The notes beneath the pieces are model-generated. The model saw only the letters and a list, made by a program, of their open reading frames with translations, was not told the origin of the DNA and ran no database searches. Shown here one piece after another: positions 488 to 20,000 of a stretch of DNA of 20,000 bases (position 1 is its first letter; every line of letters starts with the position of its first letter). A program made the translations under genes and the position numbers. This DNA is from Chiloscyllium plagiosum. Lineage: Eukaryota. The DNA is taken from positions 106,509,517-106,529,516 of the forward strand of contig NC_057717.1 of the NCBI RefSeq assembly GCF_004010195.1, read 5' to 3'.

Positions 488-797
488 TTGAAAATTCCCT
501 GCTTTACCTGTCTTTTAGTCCCAAATTGACAGAGCACAGGCTGCATTTCTGTACCTAGCAAGATACTCTTTATTCCATATAAATATTCTAACGACTGATA
601 CACATACAATTAATAATTGTTGATACATAAATCTATCAGCTACACCTTTAACCCCTTTATAAAGTGCCCATTCAGACAGAAAGGGAGAAAAACATGTGTG
701 TTATGGGTGAAGGAAATGATGGGAAGGTTCTTGTTCACAGGTTTGGCTGAAGTGCAGCTTGTCTGTACCTGCTGTTCTATAAGCCCTTTTTCTCATA

Positions 798-886
798 CTA
801 CTGAAGGCGGGTCTCTGCACTCCAAATGTTAACTCTGCTTTCTTTCCATAGATGCTGCCAGACCTGAGTTTCTGCAGTAATTCCTG
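798..886 (+). mobile_element. Degenerate Penelope-like pLTR-derived short repeat (hammerhead core decayed)
   Basis: CTGAAGGCGGGTC..CAAATGTTAACTCTGCTTTCT..AGATGCTGCCAGACCTG resembles the reverse complement of 5950-6044 and 7698-7730. Confidence 0.6.
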
Positions 887-923
887 AATCTGTTCCTAAT
901 TTGCAAAATCTCTCTTCATCCTG

Positions 924-2280
924 GTAACCAAAGAAAACACATGCAACGTGCCTCAATGACTACTGCCTGGTGGCTCTGACCTCCATCACTATGAAATGCT
1001 TTGAGAGATTAGTCTTAGCTCATATTAATTCTAGCCTCCCAACCTGCCTCAATCCCTTGTAATTTGCCCAATGGTGCAACTGGTCCACAGCAGATGCCAT
1101 CTCCCTAGCCCTATATCCATCCATAGAACATCTGAATAATAAGAATACCTCTGTCAGGTTTCTACTTATTGACTACAACTCCACCTTCAACACTATCATT
1201 ACAACCAAACTAATCTCAAAACTCCGAAACCCAGGTCTCAGTTCCGCCCTCTGCAATTGGATCCTCAGCTTTCTGACCCACAGACCATAATCAGTGAAGA
1301 TAGACAATAGCATCTCCTCCAAGATAATCCTCAACACTGGCACCCTGCAAGAATGCATTCTCAGCCCCTTACTGTCCTCCCTGTACACTCACACTGTGTG
1401 GCCAACTCCCATCTGAACTCTATCCACAAGTTTGCTGACAACATCACCAATGCAAGCCACATACCAAACAATGACAAGACAGAACACAGCAAAGAGACAA
1501 AGTGCTTGGTGTCATGATGCAATGATACAAATCTCTTCCTCAATGTCACCAAACCCAAAGAGCTGATCATTGACTTCAGGAAACAAGGGGGAGGACATGC
1601 GCCTATCTACATCAACAGAGCTGAGGTAGAGATGGTCCGAGATTTTAAGTTCCTAGGAATGATGATCACCAATAATCTGTCCTGGTCAGATATGATGGTT
1701 AAGAAGCCACAACAACACCTTTTCTCCCTCATGGAGCCTCAGGGGATTTGGTGTGCCCATTAGGACCCTCACCAACCATTATAGTTACACCATAGAAAGT
1801 ATTCTATTTGGATGCATAATGGCTTAGTTTGGCAACTGCCCTCCCCAGAACTGTAAGACACTACAGAGAGTTATGTACACATCCCAGTTAATCACACAAA
1901 CCAACTTTCCATCCATTGACTCCATCTACACCTCTCGCTGCCACAGAAAGGCAGATATTATCAAAGACCCTTCCCGCACGACTATAATCTTTTCCAAACT
2001 CTTCCTTAAGGCAGAAAATACAGAAGCGTAAAGACACGTACCAACAGGTTCAAGAACAGCTTCTTCCCTGCTGCTATTAGACTGACGAATGGATCTTTCA
2101 AATTTTAAATCTAAAGTTGATCTTGCTTTTTGTGCACCCTCTTTACAGCTGGAACCTTGTATTCCTTGCTCTGTTCTATCACTTTGTGATCTTTGTATGG
2201 TATGATCCACCTGTACTGCACACAAAACAAAACTTTTCACTGTACCTAGTTACACGTGACAATAATAAATCAAATCAAAA
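924..2280 (+). mobile_element. Rex1/Babar-clade LINE, 5'-truncated, decayed RT plus 3' UTR
   Basis: Translates to [43 protein letters not shown] (FADD motif), KELIIDFRK; ends in AATAATAAATCAAATCAAAA tail; stops and frameshifts throughout. Confidence 0.85.
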
Positions 2281-2679: not shown

Positions 2680-2761
2680 GTCGAGAGTGTGGTGCTGGAA
2701 AAGCATAGTAAGTCAGGCAGCACCCAAGGAGCAGGAGAACCAACGTTTCAGGCAAGAGCCA
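2680..2761 (-). mobile_element. Penelope-like pLTR-derived short repeat, truncated within the hammerhead motif
   Basis: GTCGAGAGTGTGGTGCTGGAAAAGCA..GTCAGGCAGCA..GGAGCAGGAGAA..ACGTTTCAGGC is homologous to 4537-4628, 5429-5549 and 6592-6716. Confidence 0.75.
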
Positions 2762-3830: not shown

Positions 3831-4015
3831 TATGCAGGAATCCTTCCTAAACCTATATAATCTAAGAATATATAACCATCGTACCCGCTACACCTTGTGG
3901 ACAATTAAACATCCCTCCACTAATATGGTCGATGTTAATAATGGGAGAACCCAGCACAGCATTCCAAAGACAAAGGCAATTACAAACATATTTTTGGTTG
4001 AAAAGCCAGAACTTT

Positions 4016-4511
4016 GTTTTTATTCATTCACAGGATGAGGGCATTACTGGCTAGACCAGCATTTACTGCCGAGCCCAAATTGCCTAGAGAGCAGCTTAGT
4101 GTCAACCACATTGCTGTGCATCTGGAGTCACATGTTGGCCAAACCAGGTAAGGATTACCTTCCTTGAAGGACATGAATGAACCAGGTGGGATTTTCTGAC
4201 AATCGGCAATGGATTCATGGTCGTCAGTGCACTCTTAAACCCAGATCTTTTTATTGAATTCAAATTGCACCATCTGCCATGGCAGGATTCATACCCAGGT
4301 CCCCAGGACATTAGGGACATTTAAGTGACTCTTGGATAGGCACATAGATGATAGTACAATGAAGGGTATGGAGGTTACTTTGATCTTAGAATAGGATAAA
4401 AGGTCGGCACAACATCGAGGGCCCAAGGACTGTGCTGTACTGTTCTATGTTCTATTTCCTGTGTCTCTGAATGAACAGTCCAGCAATACTAGCACTGAAC
4501 CATTGCCTCCC
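4016..4511 (-). mobile_element. tRNA-derived SINE (not HE1), split by a CR1 3' end insertion
   Basis: Minus strand begins GGGAGGCAATGGTTCAGTG (A-box-like), resumes after the insert with CTGGGTATGAATCCTGCCA (B-box-like), ends ...TAAATGCTGGTCTAGCCAG...GTGAATGAATAAAAA. Confidence 0.75.
4312..4455 (+). mobile_element. CR1 LINE extreme 3' end inserted in the SINE
   Basis: CATTTAAG..CTTGGATAGGCACAT..GTCGGCACAACATCGAGGGCC..GTGCTGTACTGTTCTATGTTCTAT (CR1 3' UTR with TTCTATG tail repeats). Confidence 0.8.
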
Positions 4512-4536
4512 GTGCTGAGTGGATGATCCATCTCAG

Positions 4537-4628
4537 TTGAAACTTTATTGCTGGAACAGCACAGCAGGTCAGGCAGCATCCAGGGAACAGGAGATTCGAC
4601 GTTTCGGGCACAGGCCCTTCTTCAGGAA
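4537..4628 (-). mobile_element. 92-bp Penelope-like mini-insertion with 15-bp TSD
   Basis: Flanked by exact GATGATCCATCTCAG at 4522-4536 and 4629-4643; carries a hammerhead motif and AATAAA on the minus strand. Confidence 0.85.
4595..4628 (-). ncRNA. Minimal type I hammerhead ribozyme motif, core intact
   Basis: Minus strand UUC-CUGAAGA-A-GGGC(CUGU)GCCC-GAAA-CG-UC/GAA: stem I UUC:GAA, 4-bp stem II, palindromic ACGU stem III, GUC cleavage triplet. Confidence 0.75.
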
Positions 4629-5428
4629 GATGATCCATCTCAGCCTCCTCCTGAGGTCCCCAGCAACACAAATGGAGTGTTCATTAGATTCACTCCACAT
4701 AATAACAAGAAATGGTTGGAGCACTACAAAGGTTAAGGCCCTGATAAGGTTGCAGCAATGGTATTGAAGATGTGTGCACCAAAACTTCCTGCACACCTTG
4801 CCAAATTGTTGCTGGATAGCTACGGCACTGACATCACCCAGCAATGAGGAAAATTGCCCAGGTAGGTCCTGTATATAAAAAAGCAGGACAAATCCAACCC
4901 GGCCCATGACCCTCCTTCAGATCGTCAGAAAATTGATGAAGGGGTTTTCAAAAGTGTGATCAAGTAGCAGCTGTTCAACAATAACCTGTTCAGTGATGCC
5001 CAGTTTGGGTTCCACCAGGGCCACTCAGCTCCTGACCTCATTAAAGCTTTGGTTTCAACATGGACAAAAAAGCTGAATTCCAGAGGGGAGGGGAGAGTGA
5101 CAGCCCTCGACATCAAGGCTGCCTTCAACCGAGTGTGGCATCAAGGAGCCCTAACAAAACTGGAATCAATGGGAGTCAAGGGGCAAACTCTCCACTGATT
5201 GTGGTCACACCTGACACACAGGAAGAAAGTTGTGGTTGTTGGAGATCAGTCATCTCAGCTCCAGGAGTTCCTCAGAGTAGTATCCTTGGCCCAACCATCT
5301 TCAACTGCTTCATCAATAACTTTCCCTCCATCATAAGGTCAGAAGTGGGGATGTTTACAGACGATTGTGCAATATTCAGCATCATTTGTGACTCATCAGA
5401 CATTGAAGCAGTCCATGTTAAAATACAG

Positions 5429-5718
5429 GGAGAAAGTGAGGACTGCAGATGCTGGAGATCAGAGCTGAAAATGTGTTGCTGGAAAAGCGCAGCAGGTCAG
5501 GCAGCATCCAAGGAGCAGGAGAATCGACGTTTCGGGCATGAGCCCTTCCTAACCTGCAATCTTCTTCCTGACCTCTCCGCCCCCACCCCCACTCCGGCCT
5601 ATCACCCCCACCTTAACCTCCTTCCACCTATCGCATTTCCAATGCCCGTCCCCCAAGTCCCTCCTCCCTACCTTTTATCTCATTCCTGAAGAAGGGCTCA
5701 TGCCCGAAACGTCGATTC
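5429..5718. mobile_element. Penelope-like insertion with inverted pLTR pieces and 17-bp TSD
   Basis: TCCATGTTAAAATACAG at 5412-5428 and 5719-5735; minus-strand pLTR piece 5429-5549 followed by a plus-strand C-rich segment ending in a hammerhead motif. Confidence 0.85.
5684..5715 (+). ncRNA. Minimal hammerhead ribozyme motif, core intact, very short stem I
   Basis: UC-CUGAAGA-A-GGGC(UCAU)GCCC-GAAA-CG-UC/GA. Confidence 0.65.
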
Positions 5719-5949
5719 TCCATGTTAAAATACAGCAAGCTTTGGACAATATCTAGGTTTGGGCTGACAAGTAATAAGCTTCATTTACACCATACAAGTG
5801 CCAGATATTGACCATCTCCAACAAGAGAAAATTCAACCATAAACCTTTGACATGCAATGGGTATTACGATGACTGATTCCCCCACTTTCAACATCCTGTG
5901 GTTAACATTGACCAAAAAGTGAACAAGTCACATCAATACTATTCAAAGA

Positions 5950-6044
5950 ACAAACAGCTGCTGGAAATCTGAAACAAAAAAAACACATTTTTGGAGAAAC
6001 TCAGTAGGTCTCCATCTAGGGAGAGAAAGCAGAGTCAATGTTTC
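5950..6044 (-). mobile_element. Penelope-like pLTR-derived repeat, left half of a copy split by CR1
   Basis: GCTGGAAATCTGAAACAAAA..GGAGAAACTCAG..GGTCT..CATCT..GAGAGAAAGCAGAGTCAATGTTTC; sequence resumes at 7698. Confidence 0.65.
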
Positions 6045-6588
6045 CATAAGACCATAGGAGCAAATTTGGCCATTTGGCTGATCGAGTCAGCTCCATCATT
6101 TGATCATGGCTGAAATGTTTCTCAACCCCGTTCTCCTGCCTTCTACTCGTAACCCTTGATCCACTTACTAATCACAAAACTATCTACTTTTGTCTTAAAT
6201 GCAGTGAATGGCTTAGCCTCCACAGCTTTCTGTGGCAATGAGCTCCACAGATTCACAACCCTCTGGTTACAGAAATTCCTCCTTATCTCAGTTCTAAAGC
6301 ATCATTCCTTCACTCTGAGGCCGGTGCCCTCAGGTCCCATTCTCTCCTACTGGTGGAAACATCTTCTCCACGTTCACTCTATCCAGGCCTCTCAGTATTA
6401 TGTACACTTCAATGAGATCCCCCTCACCTTTCTAAACTCCATCAGGTACAGATCCATAGTCCTCTTTACTAAAATGCATATCCTCACACTTTCCCACACT
6501 ATTCCATCTGCCACTTCTTTGCCCATTCTCCTAGCCTGTCCAAGTACTTCTGCAGCCTCCCTGCTTCCTTAATATTACCTCCCCGCCA

Positions 6589-6870
6589 AGTGAAAGTGAG
6601 GACTGCAGATGCTGGAGATTAGAGTCAAGAGTGTAGTGCTGGAAAGGCACAGCAGGTCAGGCAGCATCCAAAGAGCAGAGAATCGACGTTTCGGGCAAAA
6701 GCCCTTCAGCAGGAATGAGCACAGCAGGTCAGGCAGCATCCGAGCTGCAGGAGAGTCAATGTTTCAGGCAAAAGCCCTTCCTGATGAAGGGCTTTTGTCC
6801 GAAACATCGACTCTTCTGCTCCTTAGATGCTGCCTGACCTGCTGTGTTTTTCCAGCACTATGCTCTCGAC
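6589..6870. mobile_element. Penelope-like insertion with three pLTR pieces (two tandem minus, one inverted plus) and three mutated or truncated hammerheads
   Basis: Minus copies about 6592-6716 and 6718-6780, plus copy 6778-6870 (TTCCTGATGAAGGGCTTTTGTCCGAAACATC); imperfect TSD TACCTCCCCGCCA / TACCTCTCCTGCCA. Confidence 0.8.
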
Positions 6871-7332
6871 TACCTCTCCTGCCACCTATCTTTGTGTCAT
6901 CTCAAACTTAGCAACAATGCCCTCAGTTCCATCGTCCAGATCATTAATGTCTAATGTGAATAGCTGTCCCAACACAGAATCTGCGGAACTCCACTGGTCA
7001 CTGGATGCCATCCTGAAAAAGAGCCCTTCCTCCCCTTCTGCCAGTCAGACAATCCTCTGTTCATGCCAGTAACTTGCTGCAACACCATGATTTCTTATCT
7101 TGTTTTACAGACTCCTGTGCAGCGCCCTGTCAAAGGCCTTTTGGAAATCCAGATAGATCAGGTCCCCTCGCTTGCCTTTGTCTAACTTGCCCGTTACCTC
7201 CTCTAAAAATTCTAACAAATTTGTCAGGCCTGACCTCTCCTTGACGAAGCTATGCTGACTCAGTCCTACTTGACCATGCACTCTCAAGCACTTTGCAACT
7301 CATCCTTAATAATGGACTCTAAAACCTTATCA

Positions 7333-7442
7333 GTCAGGCAACATCTGAGGATCTCTTCGGATGCTGCCTTGACTGGCTGTGCTTTTCCAGCACAACACTC
7401 TCCGACTCTAATCTCCAGCATCTGTAGTCCTCACTTTCTCCT
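7333..7442 (+). mobile_element. Penelope-like mini-insertion with short inverted 5' end and 12-15 bp TSD, no hammerhead
   Basis: TCTAAAACCTTA at 7318-7329 and 7443-7454; GTCAGGCAACATCTGAGGA is inverted relative to TCTTCGGATGCTGCCTTGAC; ends CTCCAGCATCTGTAGTCCTCACTTTCTCC. Confidence 0.8.
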
Positions 7443-7697
7443 TCTAAAACCTTACCAATAACTGAGGTCAGGCTATCCAGCTTATAGATTCTGTCTTCTG
7501 CCTCCCTCCCTTATTAAACAGGGGGTGTTACATTTGAACCTTCCAGACTCCAGTGATTCCTGAAAGCTCACCACCAATGCCTCCAGCTATCTCCTTCAGA
7601 ACTGGTCTGAGTTATTTATCCACCTTCATACCTTTTGGCTTCCCTAGCACCTTCTCCTTCGTGATGGCTATTACACTTCTCTTCCCCCTCACGTCCT

Positions 7698-7730
7698 TGT
7701 TTTGGGTCCAGTGACCCTTCTTCAGAACTG
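7698..7730 (-). mobile_element. Right half of the split pLTR-derived repeat with a disrupted hammerhead
   Basis: Minus strand CAGTT-CTGAAGA-A-GGGTC(ACTG)GACCC-AAAACA. Confidence 0.65.
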
Positions 7731-8312
7731 ATTGCAGCATGTCTCTCCTGTTCACTCATCCTAAAAATAAGAAAGGTTTCTGCTTCATGATTTCCACATA
7801 GTGATTAGTTGGCATGATCTCTCTGATTGGCATTACTATGGAGAATGTACCAGGGAACTGCTTTGATTAATTAAAACACCAATGGTGCCTTCTCCTGCAG
7901 AGGCCTGGGCCCTATATATATTTGAATATTGAGTTTCTAGCAAGTATAAGGGAAGCACTTTATGAACCAAACTGATAATAGTGGGTGCAGTCAACTTTCC
8001 CAATGTTACAAGACTCGTAACAGAATGTGTAATGTTCAAGATGGTTCTACAATTGAATAGCACTTGCTGAACAATCCCATGTGCATTGAGAATTCCTATA
8101 ATAACCAGTTTAAAATTAACAGTTGAGTTCATAGTGTCATTCACTTAAACCCACTACAAGCTACATCTATTCATCCACAGGGACCTGTATTCTGCAGGAA
8201 ATAGAAAACTTCCCTTCAATACTGCACCTTTTTTTATATTAACCTTAATATAACAAATATCAGTAATAACTCCCTTGTGAATTATCCATCACAACACATC
8301 AAAGAGTCAACT

Positions 8313-8608
8313 TCATAGAATCACAACAGTGTCCCCATCGAGTCCACAATGACCCTCTGAAGAGCATCCCCCCCCCCCCCCCCCCCCAACCCTATCCCTG
8401 CATTTCCCTAGGCTAATCCACCTAATCTGCACACTATGGTCAATTTTCTGTGCACTGTGGGAGGAAACTGGAGCACCCAGAGGAAACCCACGCAGACACG
8501 GGGAGAATGTACAAACTCCATGCAGACAAATTACCCGAGGGGGGAATCAAACATGGGTCCCTGGTGCTGTGAGGTAGCAGCACTAACCACTGAGCCACCA
8601 TGCTTCCC
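8313..8608 (-). mobile_element. HE1-type SINE with internal poly(C) expansion
   Basis: Reverse complement of TGGCTCAGTGGTTAGTGCTGC (A box) and GGTTTCCTCTGGGTGCTCCAGTTTCCTCCCACAG domain. Confidence 0.9.
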
Positions 8609-8838
8609 TACTTGCTAACTAACCCACAACGTTTTCTCACACATCAGAAAACTGCAGACTGAATACATAGTGGGAAACTTTTCAACTCTTTCTTGTGTCT
8701 TTAGGCATCCATCTCAGAGATAGATGGCTGTGATATTTTTAAGTTCACAGCTTGATTCTGTCAGGAGCACAGCATTCCAAAGGACTAAGTTAAAAATCAC
8801 ACAACACCAGGTTATAGTCCAACAGGTTTATTTGGAAG

Positions 8839-8873
8839 CACTAGCTTTCGGAGCGACGCTCCTTCATCAGGTG
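8839..8873 (-). ncRNA. Minimal hammerhead ribozyme motif, core intact
   Basis: Minus strand CAC-CUGAUGA-A-GGAGC(GUC)GCUCC-GAAA-GC-UA/GUG. Confidence 0.75.
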
Positions 8874-9304
8874 ATTGTGGAGAATAAGATTGTAAGACAG
8901 AATTTATAGCAAAAGTTTACAGTGTGATGTAACTGAAATATTATATTGAAAAAGACCTGGATTGTTTGTTCAAAAACTGCATGAATCCGTCTAAGATTCT
9001 GTAAATCTGTTTTTTAGATTAGAATCAGTCTGACCATTGTGGCACAGACAGCCTCACACAGGGAGCTAACACCCTCAATACATTATCTGGGCCGGCATGA
9101 CACTGTTGTTAAAATTCACTTGAGAATGTAACTTTTAAAAAAAAAATGTGATTTACGTATGAAAGAACTGGAACCAACATGTTCATTCTAAAAGATGAGA
9201 GACTTAACAAACAATCCAGGTCTTTTTCAATATAATATTTCAGTTACGTCACACTGTAAACTTTTGCTATAAATTCTGTATCTTACAATCTTATTCTCCA
9301 CAAT

Positions 9305-9339
9305 CACCTGATGAAGGAGCATCGCTCCGAAAGCTAGTG
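9305..9339 (+). ncRNA. Minimal hammerhead ribozyme motif, core intact
   Basis: CAC-CUGAUGA-A-GGAGC(AUC)GCUCC-GAAA-GC-UA/GUG: stem I CAC:GUG, 5-bp stem II, palindromic AGCU stem III. Confidence 0.75.
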
Positions 9340-10890
9340 CTTCCAAATAAACCTGTTGTACTATAACCTGGTGTTGGCTGATTTTTAATTTTGTACACCC
9401 CAGTCCACCACCAGTGTGTCTAAATCATTCCAAAGGACTGGCATTCTTTTACCTACACAATGTATTTGTCTGAGTTTAGCTGAACCCGGCCTTCCCAGTT
9501 CTCTCTATAGATTTCTGTTGTTGATGGCTGTATCTTTTCATCGACATCATAGAGGTCAGCTATGCACTGGCTCCCTTACATTCTCTGTAAATCTTACCTA
9601 TTATCTGTTGGAATGTATCCTGGTTCACTGCAAGGCTATCACATGAATAGGGAATGAACAAATGCTGTCAACAGAAAATATTCCTTTTTAAACTTCATGT
9701 TCTAATAGCATTTAATCCATCAAATTTGCTAAAAACTTTGACCGTATCAATGCTGGCATGGTCTCATGCATCAATAGATTTGTTGCTGGTTCAATGTGAT
9801 GTGAAACTCAAATTCTTCAGAGTACCCAGGCATCCCATACAAACACTCTGGGCCAAAGTTACTACACAAAAGAAGAAAAACAAAGCTATGTCTTTGACAA
9901 TTTAGAAAGATCTTAAGACAGATAGTAAAGTTTCAATCACTATCCTTTAGAGGTACTCAGTCTCAGAGAAATATTACGCCTAGCTCAACTCTTTCATTTC
10001 TTACTTTACTGACTTCTCAGTTCTCCTTCCTGGATTGCTGGGACCTTTTTACCATTTAAATCAGAATGCTGACATGAACCTATTTCAATCCTAATGCCCT
10101 AAACCTCTTTTCAATTCTAACAACTTGAAGACCCATCAACTCACAAACTTCAGTTGGGTTGATTGCTTCTCCTGATCTGAAAACCAGTTCTTCCGCTGGG
10201 AGTAAATTGTTCTCCTGAACTGAACTCCCAACACTTAGGAAGGAAACTCCAATCAGCCCTAAACGCAGTAGTACAAACATTTCGTTCATTAAGATCGCAG
10301 ATAGCAGATATTCTACTAGACAGTTAACTGACTGAGTAAAAAGGATCTGCCTTCACAGAAATCACATCGCTAGTTCCCTGTTCTAACCACCATCTGACCT
10401 CCTAATACAGTGGTTACTGCACAGAATTGAACACTACATTGCCTCTAATTGTAAAAAAAAATCACATTCCACTTTAACTCACACTAAAGAAAGACTGGGC
10501 CAGGCTACTGAAAATCCATGTAGCTCCGGCTGCATTTTCTTTTCTGATTGGACCTTTTCCCTGTTCAAGTGTATGTCGAACTGCCTTCTATGTGAGCTCC
10601 TTGAAACACCATTCTCTTTCAGACACGGAAATACACACTGATCATCCTCGTCAACTCTCACTGCTCCATCATTAATGTACTCACTTTCCCTCAGAACCAT
10701 CCCTGCCCTCCTGGGTGTAAGGCTCTGTCTGTGACACAGAGGGAGGAGGGATAGGGGGAATCTTCCATCTTCACCCCCCACTCCCCCGAGAGCGGGCTCA
10801 GGGTTGGAGCCGGGACATTATAACAACAACCCGAGGCGCTACCCGGCTCCAGCCTCAGCAAATAGGGAGATTAAAAATATTTATAATTAC

Positions 10891-11294: not shown

Positions 11295-12115
11295 CTGAAT
11301 AATACATGTTGGAATCATAGGTTTCAGGAATGGCATGATTGGCAGACACATGTCTGGGTTCTCACTGGTACCCTTTCACAAATACCACTCTGTTTCTTTG
11401 GCAGAGAGACCATCTTACAGAGGTATGTAATCTGTAACAAATGAATAAAACATGGAAAGAAAAACATTTAAATTGACAACAGGAGACTAAATGCTGCTGC
11501 TGAGCTCCATCACATCTGCTACCTTTGTCAGTCTGGGTGATAGATGTTGGGTGTTTGGAAGGTTTGGAATAAATATTTTGGGAAAAGATCTGTGCTGACT
11601 CCACAGCATATTCTATTGTTTTATCTGCTAATTGGGAAAATGGAGATTGGATTTTTCTAATTGCCCAGAGACAAAAGTGACAATGTGAAGTTTGAATGTG
11701 AAGTTTTCTTTCTCAGAATGAGATAATGTTGAATGTAGAAACATGTTTGCATTTACACCTGATGAAGGTATGACGGTATCCAGCTTTTCTTAGCTGCTGC
11801 TCTTTATCAACTGTGGTCTATCTCAGCGACCTTCCCATTCACTCTCACTTCACCAGTACCTTCCTCCTTGGTATAGACAGATGCAAAGTACTGATTTTGT
11901 ACCACAGCCAGGCCCTCTGCTTCCATATATTAATTACCATTTTGGTCCTTAATTGTTTCTACTTTTCATCAACTTTCTAACTGCATATCCATTTTTTTTC
12001 CATATTTACACAGACATTGTGTAATTATAATGCCTTTTTTAGACAGAGACAAGTCCATTAAAAATATCTCGAACTTAACTTGAAGGCATTTAACTTTGAC
12101 AGTAAAGTTCTAATA

Positions 12116-12436
12116 GGGTGGCACAGTGGCTCAGTGGTTAGCACTGCTGCCTCACAGTGCCAGGGATCTGAGTTCAACTCCAACCTCAGGCGGCTGTGCG
12201 TGTAGAGTTTGCATGTTCTCCCTGTATCTGCATAGGTTTCCTCCGGGTGCTCCGGTTTCCTCCCACAGTCCAAAGATGTGCAGGTTAGAGTGGATTGGCC
12301 ATGCTAAATTGCCTGTAGTGTTAAGTACATTAGTCAGGGATAAATGTAGGGGAATTGGTCTGGGTGGGTTATTCTTCAGAAGGTCAGTGTGGATTTGTTG
12401 GTCCGAAGGGCTTGTTTCCATACTGTAGGGAATCTA
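12116..12436 (+). mobile_element. HE1-type SINE, full length
   Basis: GGGTGGCACAGTGGCTCAGTGGTTAGCACTGCTGCCTCACAG, B box GAGTTCAACTCC, V-domain, tail GTTTCCATACTGTAGGGAATCTAA. Confidence 0.92.
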
Positions 12437-13049
12437 AATGTAAAACCATGTTAATAGCAAATCTTGCTAAATTATGTTTTACTATTTACAAACCTACAGA
12501 AGACTTTTGCATTTCTTCATATCTTAACTGCCAATCTCCTGTTATTGTCTCTCTTTGCTTCTCTTATTTCTTATTTCACTTCATTTCTGATTTATTTGTA
12601 TTCTACCTTTCTGCTAAAAACCTGATCAGTTGTTCCATTTTCCCATTGTTCCATTTCAATCTGGCCTGCCAATCTTTCAAGTCATTCAGGTAATAAGTTC
12701 CTTGCAAAGGTAACTGGAGCTTAAAGTGGCAGAGGTCCAGGAGCCACAGAGTGGTGGAAAATGCAGTGAATGTTGTTGAATATTGTGTCATTTAGATAAT
12801 TTAAAGCTGAACAGTTTTATTTCATGTATTGCACTTGCGTTTTCTCAACTGAATGTTCATACTGTGAATTGTTGGAGTTGCAGTGACAGAATTAGAAACA
12901 AACCTTCAAATGTTTAGCTTGACTTCATCAGACTACAGGAAGTACATTGAGGATGCTTTTTTTTTTGTACATAGAAATGTGTGTCAAGTTTTTTTGTAGA
13001 AAAAGCACTTATTGTTAACTTATTCCTGTTATCCTTAAATACTGTACTT

Positions 13050-13406
13050 AGAGTCATAAAGATGTACAGCATAGAAACAGATCCTTCGGTCCAACCCGTC
13101 CATGCGGCCAGATATCCCAACCCAACCTAGTCCCACCTGCCAGCACCCGGCCCATATCCCTCCAAACCCTTCCTATTCATATACCCATCCAAATGCCTTT
13201 TACATGTTGCAATTGTACCAGCCTCCATCACTTCCTCTGGCCACTTGTTCCACACACGCACCACTCTCTGCGTGAAAAAGTTGCCTCTTAGGTCTCTTTT
13301 ATATCTTTTCCCTCTCACCCTAAACCTATGCCCTCCTGTACTGGACTTCCCGATCCCAGGGAAAATACTTTGTCTATTTACCCTATCCATGGCCCTCATG
13401 ATTTTG
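13050..13406 (-). mobile_element. CR1 (HER1-like) LINE 3' end
   Basis: Peptide KIMRAMDRVNRQSIFP..GHRFRVRG..DLRGNFFTQRVVRVWN..GTIATCKRHLDGYM plus 3' UTR ending ATGACTCTA. Confidence 0.92.
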
Positions 13407-13599
13407 GTAAAGGATATCATTACAGCTGTACTGTCTAGGAAATTAATGTTTCTCTTGTGTATTGTGACTTTAAATGTAGTAGGTGTGATCATTGTTGCGG
13501 ATATTAATGAATTCTTCTAATTCTGCTTCTGTACAAGTTCAAATACCTGCTAGACCGACACAAATTCAGAAGGTGTTATTACTGATCTATTTTATAGAG

Positions 13600-14385
13600 A
13601 TACAGTCATAGAGATGTACAGCATGGAATCAGACCCTTTGGCCTGACTCATCCATGCTAACCAGATATCCCAATCCAATCTAGTCCCATTTGCCAGCATT
13701 TGGCCCATCTCCCTCCAAATGCTTCCTATTGTACCAGCCTCCACCACTTCCTCTGGCAGCTCATTCCATATGCGCCCCACCTTCTATGTGAAAAAGCTGC
13801 CCCTTAGGTCCCTTTTATATCTTTCCTCTCTCACCCTAATCCTATGCCCTCTAGGTCTGGACTCCCCCAACCCACGGAAAAGACCTTGTCTATTTATCCT
13901 ATCCATGCTCCTCATGATTTTATAAACCTCTATAAGGTCACCCCTCAGCCTCTGATGCTCCAGGAAAAACAGCCCTAGCCTATAGAGCATCTCCCTATAG
14001 CTCAAACTCTACAACGCTGGCAACATCCTTGTAAATCTTTTCTGAATCCTTTCAAGTTTCACAACATCTTTCCGATTGGAAGGAAACTAGAACTGAATGC
14101 AATATTCCAAAAGTGGCCTAACCAATGTCCTGTACAGCTGCAATATGACCTCCCAACTTCTGTACTCAATACTCTGACCAATAAAGGAAAGCATACCAAT
14201 CACCTTCTTCACTATTCTATCTACCTGCAACTCCCCTTTCAAGGAACATTGAACCTGCACTCCAAGGTCTTGTTGTTCAACAACACTCCCCAGGACCTTA
14301 CCATTAAGTGTATAAATCTGCTCTGATTTGCTTTTCCAAAATGCAGCACCTCACATTAATATAAATTAAATTCCATCTGCTATTC
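13600..14385 (-). mobile_element. CR1 (HER1-like) LINE 3' portion
   Basis: Peptide SYREMLYRLGLFFLEHQRLRGDLIEVYKIMR; homologous to 17170-18056. Confidence 0.92.
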
Positions 14386-14569
14386 CTTTGTTATCAAATA
14401 AAAAAGCTTGTGAGGATGAAAATGTAGCTCCTGAAATTTACAATGTAACCTTCAAGAAAATATCAAGGGAATATATTCCGAGTCTTCATCATATGGTTGG
14501 GATCCTGAAATCTATTGATCCTGCAATCTGTTTGCAACTTTGGTATTAACTTCCAATTACGTATCTGCT

Positions 14570-15937: not shown

Positions 15938-16281
15938 GTCATAGAATCATAGAGTCATAGAGATGTACAGCATGGAAACAGACCCTTCGGTCCAACCCGT
16001 CCATGCCGACCAGATATCCCAATCTAGTCCCACCTGCCAGCACCTTGCCCATTTCCCTCCAAACCCTTCCTATTCATATACCCATCCAAATGCCTCTTAA
16101 ATGTTGCAATTGTACCAGCCTCCACCACTTCCTCTGCCAGCTCATTCCATACATGTACCACCCTCTCCATGAAAAAGTTGCCCCTTAGGTCTCTTTTATA
16201 TCTTTCCCCTCTCACCCTAAACCTATGCCCTCTGTTCTGGACTCCCTGATCAAGGGAAATGACTTTGTCTATTTATCCTAA
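15938..16281 (-). mobile_element. CR1 (HER1-like) LINE 3' end with 8-bp tail repeats
   Basis: GTCATAGAATCATAGAGTCATAGAG tail; peptide RGERYKRDLRGNFFMERVVHVWNELAEEVVEAGTIATFKRHLD. Confidence 0.92.
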
Positions 16282-17169: not shown

Positions 17170-18056
17170 GTGGACAGTGAAGAGGGTTACCTCAGATTAC
17201 AACAGGATCTTGACCAGATGGGCCAATGGGCTGAGAAGTGGCAGATGGAGTTTAATTCAGATAAATGTGAGGTGCTGCATTTTGGGAAAGCAAATCTTAG
17301 CAGGACTTATACACTTAATGGTAAGGTCCTAGGGAGTGTTGCTGAACAAAGAGACCTTGGAGTGCAGGTTCATAGCTCCTTGAAACTGGAGTCCCAGGTT
17401 GATAGGCTACTGACGAAGGCATTTGGTATGCTTTCCTTTATTGGTCAGAGTATTGAGTACAGGAGTTGGGAGGTCATGTTGTGGCTGTACAGGACATTGG
17501 TTAGGCTATTGTTGGAATATTGCATGCAATTCTGGTCTCCTTCCTATCGGAAAGATGTTGTGAAACTTGAAAGGGTTCAGAAACGATTTACAAGGATGTT
17601 GCCAGGGTTGGAGGATTTGAGCTATAGGGAAAGGTTGAATAGGCTGGGGCTATTTTCCCTGCAGCGCTGAAGGCTGTGGGGTGACTTTACAGAGTTTTAC
17701 AAAATCATGAGGGGCATGGATAGGATAAATAGACAAAGTCTTTTCCCTGGGCTGGGGAGTCCAAAACTAGAGGGCATAAGTTTAGGGTGAGAGGGGAAGG
17801 ATATAAAAGGGACCTAAGAGGCAACGTTTTCATGCAGAGGGTGGTACTGTATGGAATGAGTTGCCAGAGGAAGTGGTGAAGGCTGGTACAATTGCAACCT
17901 TTAAAAGGCATTTGGATGGACATATGATTAGGAAGGGTTTGGAGGGATATGAGCCAAGTGCTGGCAGGTGGGACTAGATTGGGTTGGGATATCTGGCCGG
18001 CATGGATGAATTGGACCGAAGGGTCTGTTTCTGTGCTGTACATTTCTATGACTCTA
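17170..18056 (+). mobile_element. CR1 (HER1-like) LINE ORF2 C-terminus and 3' UTR, relatively young
   Basis: Open frame LQQDLDQMGQWAEKWQMEFNSDKCEVLHFG..RDLGVQV..LEYCMQFWSP..LERVQKRFTRMLPGL; ends TTCTATGACTCTA. Confidence 0.95.
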
Positions 18057-18159
18057 AAGAACTATTTATGATGCATGGCATCCAGATGGACCAGGGATGA
18101 GGCTTGGGATAGACTTGTTCACTCTCACATGAACTGATGACCTCCATCGGTGAATATTT

Positions 18160-18349: not shown

Positions 18350-19025
18350 AAGTTGAAAATCACACAACACCAAGTTGTGGTGTGTTCAACAGGTTCATTT
18401 GGAAGCACTAGCTTTTGGAGCGCTGCTCCTTCATCAGGTGGTTGTGAAGCAGGATCATAAGACACAGGATTTTTTGCAAAAGATTACAGTGTCATGCAGC
18501 TGAAATGATATATTGAACAGACCTGGATTGCTGTTAAGTCTTTCGTCTTTTAGAATGGGTTGCGGGTTTTGGTTCATTGATACGTAAATCCCAGAACTAC
18601 TTTTACATCACATTCTTGAGATAACTTAAGGTTTTTATAATACAAGGGTGACATCTCAGCTCAGACAGAGCATTAAAGATGGGAGGTTAGAATCTATATG
18701 ATCCCAGTCTTGAGTCAGACTGGTTCTATTTCCAAAGTGGAATTTATGAAATATTACATGGATTGACTGCCTGCAGATGGTGCACTTTTTGAGCAAAGTA
18801 GAATATATCTGCAAATATAATTCTACAAATGGAAATTCACCCCATAGACTTATACGTGTGTGTGCATGAGAGAGAGAGAGTGTGTGTGAGTGTCTGCATG
18901 TGAGTGTGTGTACATATGAGTATAGGTCCGCGTGAGAGACTGTGTGTTTGGATGTATGTATGTTTGGTAAAGTGTGTGTGTGACTGTTATGGAGTATAAC
19001 CCTGTGAGAGGGTGTGAGAGTGGGA
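18350..19025 (-). mobile_element. Penelope-like pLTR-type repeat related to 8787-9425, with (TG)/(GA)-rich tract; hammerhead mutated
   Basis: AAGTTGAAAATCACACAACACC..GGAAGCACTAGCTTTTGGAGCGCTGCTCCTTCATCAGGTG is homologous to 8787-8970; similarity continues to the reverse complement of 9060-9205; degenerate microsatellite 18855-19025. Confidence 0.8.
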
Positions 19026-19029
19026 GTGA

Positions 19030-20000
19030 GTGCTGCACTCCCTTAGCACTGACCCTCCGACAGTGCGGCACTCCTTCAGCACTGCTCATCCGACAGTGCG
19101 GCAATCCCTCATCACAAACCCTTCAACAGTCCTGCACTCCCTCAGCACTGACCCTCTGACAGTGCGGCACTCCATCAGTACTCTCCCTCTGACAGTGTAG
19201 CACTCCCTCAGCACTGACCCTCTGACAGTGCGGCACTCCATCAGTACTCTCCCTCCGACAGTGTAGCACTCCCTCAACACTGACCCTCCGACAGTACGGC
19301 ACTCCCTTAGCACTGACCCTCCGATAGTGCGGCACTCCTTCAGCACTGACCCTCCGACAGTGCAGCGCACCCTCAGCACTGACCCTCCGACAGTACGGCA
19401 CTCCCTCAGCACTGACCCTCTGACAGTGCCCACTCCCTCAGCACTGACCCTCTGACAGTGCGGCACTCCTTCAGCAATGACCCTCCGACAGTGCGGCATT
19501 CCCTCAGCAGTGACACTCTGAGAGTGCAGCACTCCCTTAGCACTGACCCTCTGACAGTGCGGCACTCCCTCAGTAATGACCCTCCGACAGTACGGAACTC
19601 CTTCAGCACTGACCCTCCGACAGTGCAGCGCACCCTCAGCAGTGACCCTCCGACAGTGCGGCACTCCCTCAACACTGACCCTCCGACAGTGCGCCAATCC
19701 CTCAGCACTGATCTTCATACAGTGCCCACTCCCTCAGTACTGACTGTTTAACAGTGCACCACTCCCTCAGCACTGACCATCCGACAGTGCGGCACTCCCT
19801 CAGTACTGACCTTCCGACAGTGCAGCAATCCCTCAGCACTGACCCTCCGACAGTGCGGTGCTCCCTCAGTACTGACCCTCCGACAGTGCGGCGCTCCCTC
19901 AGTAATGACCTTCCAACAGTGCGGCACTCACTCAGTATTGACCCTCCAACAGTGCGTCACTCCCTCAGCACTGACCCTCTGACAGTGCAGCACTCCCTCA
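19030..20000. repeat. 33-bp minisatellite (CACTCCCTCAGCACTGACCCTCCGACAGTGCGG)n, continuing past the window end
   Basis: About 29 adjacent diverged units with no unique spacers. Confidence 0.97.

Follow-up and report, generated by a model that had tools for sequence, protein, structure and literature searches.

In a 20,000-nt stretch of the Chiloscyllium plagiosum genome (contig NC_057717.1, positions 106,509,517 to 106,529,516 of the forward strand, referred to below as the window), several short motifs carry the core of the hammerhead ribozyme. It is very likely that these motifs are minimal hammerhead ribozymes (min-HHRs) located in the 3′ untranslated, pseudo-long terminal repeat (pLTR) part of two autonomous families of Penelope-like elements (PLEs), here called families A and B, and that the copies in the window are not separate non-coding elements. 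This arrangement is already well described, and there is no new class of ribozyme-only mini-elements. The result is mostly a clean annotation, in which two very abundant PLE families of the species are seen to contain the minimal hammerhead already known from publications, and it illustrates that a dense group of ribozyme motifs in an ORF-less window (ORF, open reading frame) need not mean a new non-autonomous class.

Two hammerhead families and the coding regions upstream of them

The anatomy of the two families is as follows.

Family A: core box CUGA(A/U)GA, then an unpaired A; stem II GGGC/GCCC with a 4-nt loop; helix III ACGU; CGUC after GAAA; predicted cut after GUC.
Family B: core box CUGAUGA, then an unpaired A; stem II GGAGC/GCUCC with a 3-nt loop; helix III AGCU; GCUA after GAAA; predicted cut after CUA.

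Every position of the catalytic core (C3-U4-G5-A6-N7-G8-A9...G12-A13-A14...U16.1-H17) is present in the four intact copies of the window. Helix II is closed by the pair G10.1-C11.1 with one unpaired nt between A9 and position 10.1, a 1-nt bulge was needed by all A and B hits, and the cells of this helix were paired at 93.4% in family A and 91.7% in family B. Helix III has no loop and consists of a palindromic tetranucleotide, ACGU in family A (79.4% of cells paired) and AGCU in family B (100%). Helix I has 2 contiguous pairs in the commonest form of family A, 3 to 5 in its CUGU-loop subfamily (window 4591-4633 and locus L052), and 3 (CAC/GUG) in family B. The initial annotation had recognized these motifs as minimal type I hammerheads of the Penelope kind whose helix III is palindromic, in agreement with the published description (Cervera and De la Pena 2014, PMC4209133). 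The hammerhead starts ~155 nt after the ORF stop in family A (reference copy) and ~630 nt after it in family B. In family A the predicted cut is 98 nt away from the 3′ end in the long form and roughly 50-65 nt away in the short form; in family B the distance is 89 or 55 nt.

Inspection of positions 4400 to 9600 together with a pattern search placed CUGANGA...GAAA cores at 4602-4625(-), 5686-5709(+), 6781-6804(+), 8846-8870(-), and 9308-9332(+). Four of them are intact minimal type I hammerheads, at the places given in the initial annotation, and 6781-6804(+) is a fifth, nearly intact, which retains its core but has a G.U within stem II and ACAU where ACGU is expected. A sixth match to this loose pattern, at 4193-4227(-), has no stem II. 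The 6 loose matches compare with 2.17 expected, and at least 6 were reached in 7 of 200 shuffles. When stem II had to be perfect and at least 4 bp long, with 0 or 1 bulged base permitted, 5 hits were obtained in the window, 4 of which additionally had pairable 15.2/16.2, U16.1, and H17. This stricter scan gave a mean of 0.023 hits in 300 dinucleotide-preserving shuffles, with any hit in 7 of them and a full hit in none; since the hammerhead copies are repeats, the strict-scan hits are not independent events.

PLE coding sequence was searched for in the window and in the 3.56 Gb assembly that contains it. The window itself holds none according to tblastn, in which the best E values of family A proteins were 0.11 and 0.27 and family B proteins gave nothing at E ≤1. 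The earlier observation that no PLE RT (reverse transcriptase) or GIY-YIG ORF is visible in the window was borne out by this search (nothing at E ≤0.1 with the A and B proteins). The proposed check of the flanks for linked PLE ORFs had a positive outcome, as an ORF with RT and GIY-YIG endonuclease parts lies upstream in both families at other loci of the genome (identified below by their L numbers).

Family A runs upstream at other loci into an ORF with a terminal GIY-YIG domain (L008, 23.5 bits with a cut-off of 22.6). L012 presents the order RT motifs (RYIDD visible; RVT_1 17.2 bits, below the cut-off), GIY-YIG, and family A hammerhead. L036 appears to be a near-full-length A copy consisting of an inverted arm, the final 66 nt of the tail (sense), an ORF of ~3.6 kb with N letters in its middle, and the hammerhead; among all loci examined, it is the only one with the tail end repeated upstream of the ORF. 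For family B, four loci (L070, L072, L074, and L076) have an endonuclease ORF followed ~630 nt downstream by the B hammerhead, and two others (L073 and L079) have RT motifs (YTRYIDD visible; RVT_1 21.3 bits, below the cut-off). Additionally, when the family A protein was used in tblastn, L024 and L031 showed a diverged endonuclease frame immediately upstream of the family B repeat. The ORFs of the two families are colinear over 366 aa with 28% identity (BLASTP, E 3e-41), a stretch that covers the RT YxDD box, a Cys-rich linker, and the GIY-YIG part. Pfam assigned no family to the family B endonuclease ORFs of L024 and L070, and their homology to the RT-endonuclease ORF of family A came from BLASTP. 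A PDB sequence search with the family B RT gave nothing at E ≤0.01, and L068 showed no RT upstream of the L024 copy, which is truncated.

First-look candidates for the A and B endonuclease queries numbered 147,895 and 50,142, which are rough signs of abundance and not copy numbers. Matches to the sequence runs X1 and X15 (contigs) show only that the repeat is very abundant. Open frames of 920-2242 aa in the matches to the family A endonuclease query were rejected as artefacts of N stretches.

More A-related subfamilies were seen at L045 1060-1180(-), L054 1-140(+), and L051 1640-1790, with a common tail and a still-complementary stem II (AGGU/ACCU, AGGC/GCCU, and GGGU/ACCC); the hammerhead of L045 stands almost immediately downstream of the endonuclease frame. 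The 3′ untranslated region (UTR) of the family A element of L012 contains, at 2098-2122(-), an inserted piece of family B complete with its hammerhead, and thus either A and B were active in overlapping periods or B was active later than that A copy.

Copies in the window, their insertion signature and their break points

Window pieces were mapped by BLAST using references taken from longer A and B copies. Family A pieces were found at 2688-2760(-), 4535-4628(-), 5429-5548(-), 5544-5721(+), 6586-6719(-), 6718-6788(-), 6778-6857(+), and 7353-7442(+), and family B pieces at 8784-8970(-), 9017-9426(+), and 18352-18556(-). The resulting features are the following.

2688..2760 (-): family A fragment with a decayed hammerhead; CUGANGA box gone, CCG changed to CUG.
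4522..4536 and 4629-4643: target-site duplication of the 92-nt A insertion; exact 15-nt string, found only there.
4537..4628 (-): 92-nt family A insertion consisting of hammerhead and short tail; core 4602-4625, predicted cut 4598/4597.
5414..5428 and 5721-5735: target-site duplication of the 292-nt A insertion; exact 15-nt string.
5429..5550 (-): family A inverted arm; long tail complete, hammerhead without CUGANGA box and truncated at the inner junction; 99% identity to A reference 731-850.
5551..5720 (+): family A sense arm with 3′ UTR and intact hammerhead; core 5686-5709, predicted cut 5713/5714; ends 7 nt past the cut.
6586..6871: family A hairpin-like three-piece composite; flanking duplication imperfect.
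6586-6719 (-): composite piece 1, antisense copy; CUGANGA box reads CUGCUGA (N7 and G8 altered).
6718-6788 (-): composite piece 2, antisense partial copy (BLAST).
From 6778 (+): composite piece 3, sense copy; core 6781-6804.
7318-7329 and 7443-7454: target-site duplication of the tail-only A insertion; 12 nt, exact.
7330..7442 (+): family A tail-only insertion; no hammerhead, short inverted piece at the 5′ end.
8773..8786 and 9426-9439: target-site duplication of the 639-nt B insertion; exact 14-nt string.
8787..8970 (-): family B inverted arm, short-tail form; intact hammerhead, core 8846-8870, predicted cut 8842/8841.
8971..9425 (+): family B sense arm with 3′ UTR, intact hammerhead (core 9308-9332, predicted cut 9336/9337), and long tail.
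18352..18556 (-): third family B fragment; core G12 replaced by A through a CpG transition (CCG to CCA).

The 92-nt insertion has 86% identity to A reference 723-816, with stem II GGGC/GCCC, loop CUGU, helix III ACGU, and helix I UUC/GAA. The span of 4522-9439 outlined in the initial annotation runs exactly from the first target-site duplication through the last, and the degenerate copies listed there near 2745, 5525, and 6760 and at 6682-6716, 6778-6812, and 18406-18440 proved to be homologous family A or B fragments. The host of the 292-nt insertion (5429-5720) is the RT reading frame of a long interspersed nuclear element (LINE), whose flanking frames match RVT_1 at 35 and 20.9 bits.

Four exact target-site duplications of 12-15 bp (15, 15, 12, and 14 nt) are present, and three insertions (5429-5720, 7330-7442, and 8787-9425) combine an inverted 5′ arm with a sense 3′ arm. 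Family B 5′ ends in 10 other loci occupy ten separate positions between 497 and 1452 of the L024 reference and thus form a truncation series. A fixed family B unit of ~460 nt was an artefact of querying with the window copy, since longer copies continue into the endonuclease ORF. The 3′ ends are bimodal in both families. Among 163 high-scoring segment pairs (HSPs) of family A, 31 stop at reference 850-851 and 37 at 802-818, and the short end, used by L002 and by window 4537-4628, lies 34 nt before the long one. Family B 3′ ends (58 HSPs away from locus edges) are found at 418-426 (24), 437-444 (15), and 455 (11), and in the 639-nt B insertion the left arm (8787) has the short end while the right arm (9425) has the long one. 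The two alternative 3′ ends are 34-37 nt apart. No head-to-tail array was found in 4000-10000 by Tandem Repeats Finder (TRF), which gave three trivial arrays only. No unit contains two motifs on the same strand; paired motifs are on opposite strands and face each other.

For PLEs, Craig et al. (2021, PMC8557442) describe frequent 5′ truncation, pLTRs formed from partial tandems, hammerheads inside pLTRs, an inverted 5′-truncated copy directly on the 5′ side, and a tail of 30-40 bp at one end. According to Frangieh et al. (2024, PMC11167929), the tail originates from a pair of neighbouring internal sites at which reverse transcription starts, and the PLE enzyme cuts and extends both DNA strands. 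Most simply, the window copies are products of PLE target-primed reverse transcription, and the short ones are dead-on-arrival truncated or inverted insertions of autonomous elements. Because both families continue upstream into an RT and GIY-YIG ORF, the window copies are 5′-truncated insertions of autonomous PLEs. Following the literature, staggered cuts by the GIY-YIG endonuclease would leave the duplications of 12-15 bp, reverse transcription would begin at either of two internal sites, and extension of both cut DNA strands would account for the inverted arms as well as the tail. Once inserted, the copies undergo neutral decay, largely at CpG.

Some break points coincide with the ribozyme. 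In family A, 27 of the 163 HSP starts are at reference 715-728, the 5′ edge of the hammerhead (within ~12 nt). Directly upstream of these 27 starts there is an inverted A copy in 10 cases, a sense copy in 1, and other sequence in 16, the last being partly diverged UTR of other A subfamilies. Edge junctions of this family can be seen at window 4628 and 6778/6788, L017 567/568, and L052 600/602, and ten edge cases are near-perfect hairpins that turn a few bases before CUGA. In family B, 12 of 58 starts are at 325-339 (window 9295-9309), where the core begins at 338. Starts inside the hammerhead-tail stretch number 21 in family A, 4 of them cut by locus edges, and 4 of the remaining 17 are at 754-755, the first or second base past the predicted GUC cut (L002 1590, L003 1589, L053 795, and L078 3163); for family B such a footprint amounted to 1 of 58 starts only. 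These break points of genomic copies could be a record of events on the RNA, an idea that we hold to be quite doubtful; it is post hoc and comes from a small sample of loci chosen by other criteria. If true genome-wide, the break points would be a footprint of in vivo cutting by minimal hammerheads, with cut RNA used as template, and the fold of the ribozyme would moreover guide template switching while Penelope elements integrate. A possible trace of in vivo cleavage in such break points, at the edge and the cut site of the ribozyme, is the one matter here that could interest specialists.

Covariation, RNA evidence and competing explanations

Hammerhead segments for the covariation analysis were gathered by homology and not by motif, from 80 records with 269,900 bases, after removal of records that duplicate the window or another locus. 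Of the sampled segments, 46 belonged to family A and 35 to family B, and the exact motif was kept in 19 of the 46 and 8 of the 35 copies, respectively. CpG transitions accounted for 34 of 139 substitutions in family A and 15 of 47 in family B, with C11.1-G12 and the CG of ACGU as targets. The family A alignment (A3, 35 rows) consists of 34 distinct sequences, minus 2 from L051 (deletion), plus 3 window copies missed by the coverage rule, with a 1-nt upstream insertion trimmed in three rows; the family B alignment (A4, 29 rows) began with 34 distinct sequences, of which 5 were removed on account of indels (those of L075 and L070 and three of L034). A joint MAFFT alignment of both families (A2) put the GAAA boxes out of register and was left unused for pair counts.

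Within each family, pairing was at the level of the shuffled alignments: 74.6% of cells were paired compared with 74.8% after shuffling in family A, and 86.5% compared with 86.6% in family B. The covariation scores were 0.053 observed and 0.055 shuffled (A) and 0.087 observed and 0.088 shuffled (B), with the observed score equalled or exceeded in 311 and 354 of 500 shuffles. With the partner strand slid, the best pairing obtained was 47.9% (A) and 45.2% (B). The stem structure is thus present, yet the members of one family show decay and no covariation. Between the families, compensatory differences exist at four pairs, namely 1.2-2.2 (A-U in one, U-A in the other), 10.3-11.3, 10.4-11.4, and 15.2-16.2, and the surrounding 3′ UTRs do not align. 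The covarying stems claimed in the initial annotation therefore hold between families A and B and fail within each of them, where covariation equals the shuffled value. The A-related stems AGGC/GCCU, AGGU/ACCU, and GGGU/ACCC (L054, L045, and L051) hint at more compensation, and they count for little because pairing was a requirement of the scan that detected them.

RNA data concern a polyadenylation signal of family B.

8812..8832 (-): AAUAAA at 8832-8827 and poly(A) addition site at 8815-8812; by homology 9346-9368(+).

In a single-cell poly(A) RNA run with the same species label (X22), 2,476 reads aligned to family B at an identity of at least 90%, and 1,102 of them showed a loose poly-T stretch immediately ahead of 8812, 8813, or 8815, corresponding to polyadenylated minus-strand RNA; these reads may derive from any family B copy, including copies within host transcripts. 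The AAUAAA of family B is 9 nt past the predicted cut and the poly(A) 12-15 nt further, i.e. ~29 nt past the cut and 25-60 nt before the genomic 3′ ends. Either family B element RNA is often ended early, or scattered B copies give host transcripts poly(A) sites. A second RNA run (X23) contained no matching reads.

Several observations weigh against our interpretation. An Rfam search of the window returned no hammerhead at the gathering score (0 matches) and none at E ≤10, a silence that is expected since the motifs are without a helix III hairpin. Helix I is weak, with 57.6% of cells paired in family A and 73.3% in family B, in which one of the four tested pairs never forms. Minimum-energy folding of the window copies, as monomers and as homodimers, gave stem II only, with no helices I and III; such folds would fit a motif held by non-canonical core contacts, but prove nothing. 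The X22 reads traverse the family B hammerhead uncut and no pile-up of ends was seen anywhere in them, which cannot inform on cut RNA because this library captures poly(A) 3′ ends only. Cleavage at the GUC and CUA sites is itself a prediction from the motif. For a lizard PLE, insertion in vitro did not require cleavage, and RNA-seq had no reads starting or ending at the cleavage site (PMC11167929). Finally, the putative autonomous status is based on RT motifs visible in a few interrupted copies, with Pfam RT scores below the cut-off and most full-length RT stretches given as N, and not on one legible intact ORF.

A role for the motifs in processing would involve dimers. In tandem or more-than-unit-length master transcripts, two motifs could pair through ACGU (A) or AGCU (B) to form helix III, and the paired hammerheads might then cut after GUC or CUA, trimming the element RNA from the longer transcript; a lone motif in a monomer, which is the situation throughout the window, would be expected to be nearly inactive. 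Dimer cleavage by metazoan PLE min-HHRs is attributed to Lunse, Weinberg and Breaker (cited in PMC6765202). The trimming step is uncertain because metazoan min-HHRs, dimers included, reportedly show very little activity (PMC4209133) and because of the dispensability of cleavage and the missing cut ends in the lizard work (PMC11167929).

The initial annotation had gone further and proposed non-autonomous, ribozyme-centred mini-retroelements, retrozyme-like and mobilised in trans. Short copies of that kind, made by PLE proteins, would account for very short insertions such as the 92-nt copy at 4537-4628, with hammerhead, tail, and its own target duplication, and for the clustering of 5′ ends and junctions at the hammerhead 5′ edge (27 of 163 HSP starts in family A and 12 of 58 in family B); a 2026 preprint (10.64898/2026.07.22.740005) also argues that animal non-LTR retrozymes derive from PLE pLTRs. 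We nevertheless find this proposal very unlikely to be correct: both families continue unbroken into RT and endonuclease ORFs at other loci, their 5′ ends are dispersed along UTR and ORF, 4000-10000 contains no head-to-tail array and no same-strand motif pair within a unit, and the insertion at 7330-7442 has no hammerhead at all. The 16 of 27 family A edge starts without an upstream A copy include other A subfamilies whose UTR no longer aligns. In the absence of tandem arrays, the window copies are not retrozyme-like.

An alternative that accepts the PLE origin is that the motif is kept as a structured recognition or positioning signal near the RT start, with little or no catalysis in vertebrate PLEs. 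It would suit the position of the motif 55-98 nt from the 3′ ends and just upstream of both alternative end points, the minimal helices I and III, and the conserved block common to the A subfamilies, which begins exactly at the hammerhead; the very low activity of metazoan min-HHRs even as dimers (PMC4209133) and dispensable cleavage in vitro and lizard RNA-seq without cut ends (PMC11167929) point in the same direction. A mere hairpin signal, however, would not require that all positions of the catalytic core be kept in two lineages with proteins of 28% identity, and fungal PLE hammerheads cleave well as monomers (PMC4209133), so that we regard this alternative as unlikely. There is next to no probability that foldback or miRNA-like repeats able to form hairpins produced the matches by chance, with no hammerhead ancestry, which is refuted for families A and B. 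The hairpin at 6750-6816 does give weak miRNA-family rows in Rfam (mir-722, mir-680, MIR169, and mir-2007 at 6734-6833, far below the cut-off; mir-722 33.7 bits vs 81), which are due to the long inverted repeat of the three-piece composite, one arm of that repeat takes in a portion of the core (GAAGGGC), and the site at 7700-7730, described below, is truly a chance look-alike. But the full motif appeared in 0 of 300 shuffles compared with 4 in the window, the same core is present in two unrelated UTRs with stems that are different yet complementary, and the motif occupies a fixed place behind the PLE ORF. Min-HHRs in the 3′ part of two PLE families therefore remain our preferred interpretation of the intact motifs.

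Other repeats and comparison with known systems

Two further sites of the window had been listed as mutated hammerheads in the initial annotation.

790..905 (+): degenerate relic of an A-related family; hammerhead core broken, tail recognisable.
7700..7730 (-): chance look-alike, not a hammerhead; lies within a CR1/L2-like LINE reading frame.

The listing of the site near 800 was justified by its tail homology to an A-related family: window 801-905 has 74-83% identity to tails in L047, L033, L052, and L005. The site at 7700-7730 had been taken for a third subfamily, a candidate ruled out by the LINE alignment. A genome search with 7560-7800(-) gave matches only to the portion downstream of the 7700-7730 motif, and in all five other aligned copies both CUGANGA and GAAA were absent at the equivalent place, in a repeat that is conserved and coding-like. 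The adjacent frame 7105-7299(-) resembles a LINE RT, as a short piece unscored by Pfam. Since 7700-7730 is a diverged piece of LINE coding sequence, the subfamilies found here are two (A and B), and not three as had been claimed.

Other repeats were observed in the window. One LINE RT frame, at 4968-5434 and 5736-5900(+) (RVT_1, 35 bits), is interrupted by the 292-nt family A insertion, and a second LINE fragment is located on the minus strand at ~6900-7780. A repeat family with a tRNA-like head (GGG..CAGTGGCTCAGTGGTTAG type) has three copies in the window, at 186-357, 8447-8610 (inverted), and 12114-12290, and is probably a tRNA-derived short interspersed nuclear element (SINE). Another element, which has no relation to the hammerhead families, is represented by large repeats, both inverted and direct, at 13048-14390, 15949-16280, and 17234-18057; the arms of the large inverted repeat measure 454 nt, have 87% complementarity, and are 2985 nt apart. 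A G+C-rich (GC 0.59) tandem array with a 33-nt period is situated at 18937-19989, with 20 overlapping copies in family D1.

Compared with the canonical type I hammerheads of Rfam, the motifs of families A and B have the same catalytic core and follow the same UH rule at the cut site, and they differ in having no helix III hairpin, no loop-loop tertiary contact, and no Rfam match. Retrozymes are described by Cervera and de la Pena (2020, PMC7229834) as head-to-tail repeats of ~170-400 nt that yield circular RNAs, and the preprint 10.64898/2026.07.22.740005 (Li, Clavereau and Pollet 2026) gives unit sizes of 51-972 bp. The animal non-LTR retrozymes share with the copies described here type I hammerheads that need dimers in vertebrates, as well as non-coding copies related to PLE pLTRs. 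In contrast, the window shows no tandem repeat, its units grade into coding PLEs, and its paired motifs are on opposite strands. It thus contains no head-to-tail units with same-strand hammerheads and no non-coding unit with fixed ends of its own, the homology continuing into endonuclease and RT frames.

The insertion architecture is that of PLEs in PMC8557442 and PMC11167929, with strong 5′ truncation, a 5′-side inverted arm, two 3′ ends 34-37 nt apart, and target duplications. The coding architecture likewise agrees with those papers (RT, then a C-terminal GIY-YIG, and a Cys-rich linker), whereas a direct tandem (pLTR) pair is absent from the window.

The closest comparison is with the min-HHRs of metazoan PLEs. 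Most of these are single and occur in truncated PLEs, with some opposite-strand pairs 100-700 bp apart (PMC4209133). Families A and B share with them the type I topology, the full core, one unpaired nt between A9 and 10.1, the G10.1-C11.1 pair, the palindromic 15.2/16.2 without a helix III loop, a place at the non-coding PLE end, several consensus families per genome, and the occurrence mostly as single motifs in truncated elements. The terminal non-coding location in an element with RT and GIY-YIG was seen at other loci of the genome, and not in the window. Stem II has 4-5 bp here, compared with 7-8 bp in the schistosome examples, and helix I has 2-3 contiguous pairs, compared with the 4-5 reported; otherwise, nothing distinguishes the hammerheads of these two families from the min-HHRs of metazoan PLEs.

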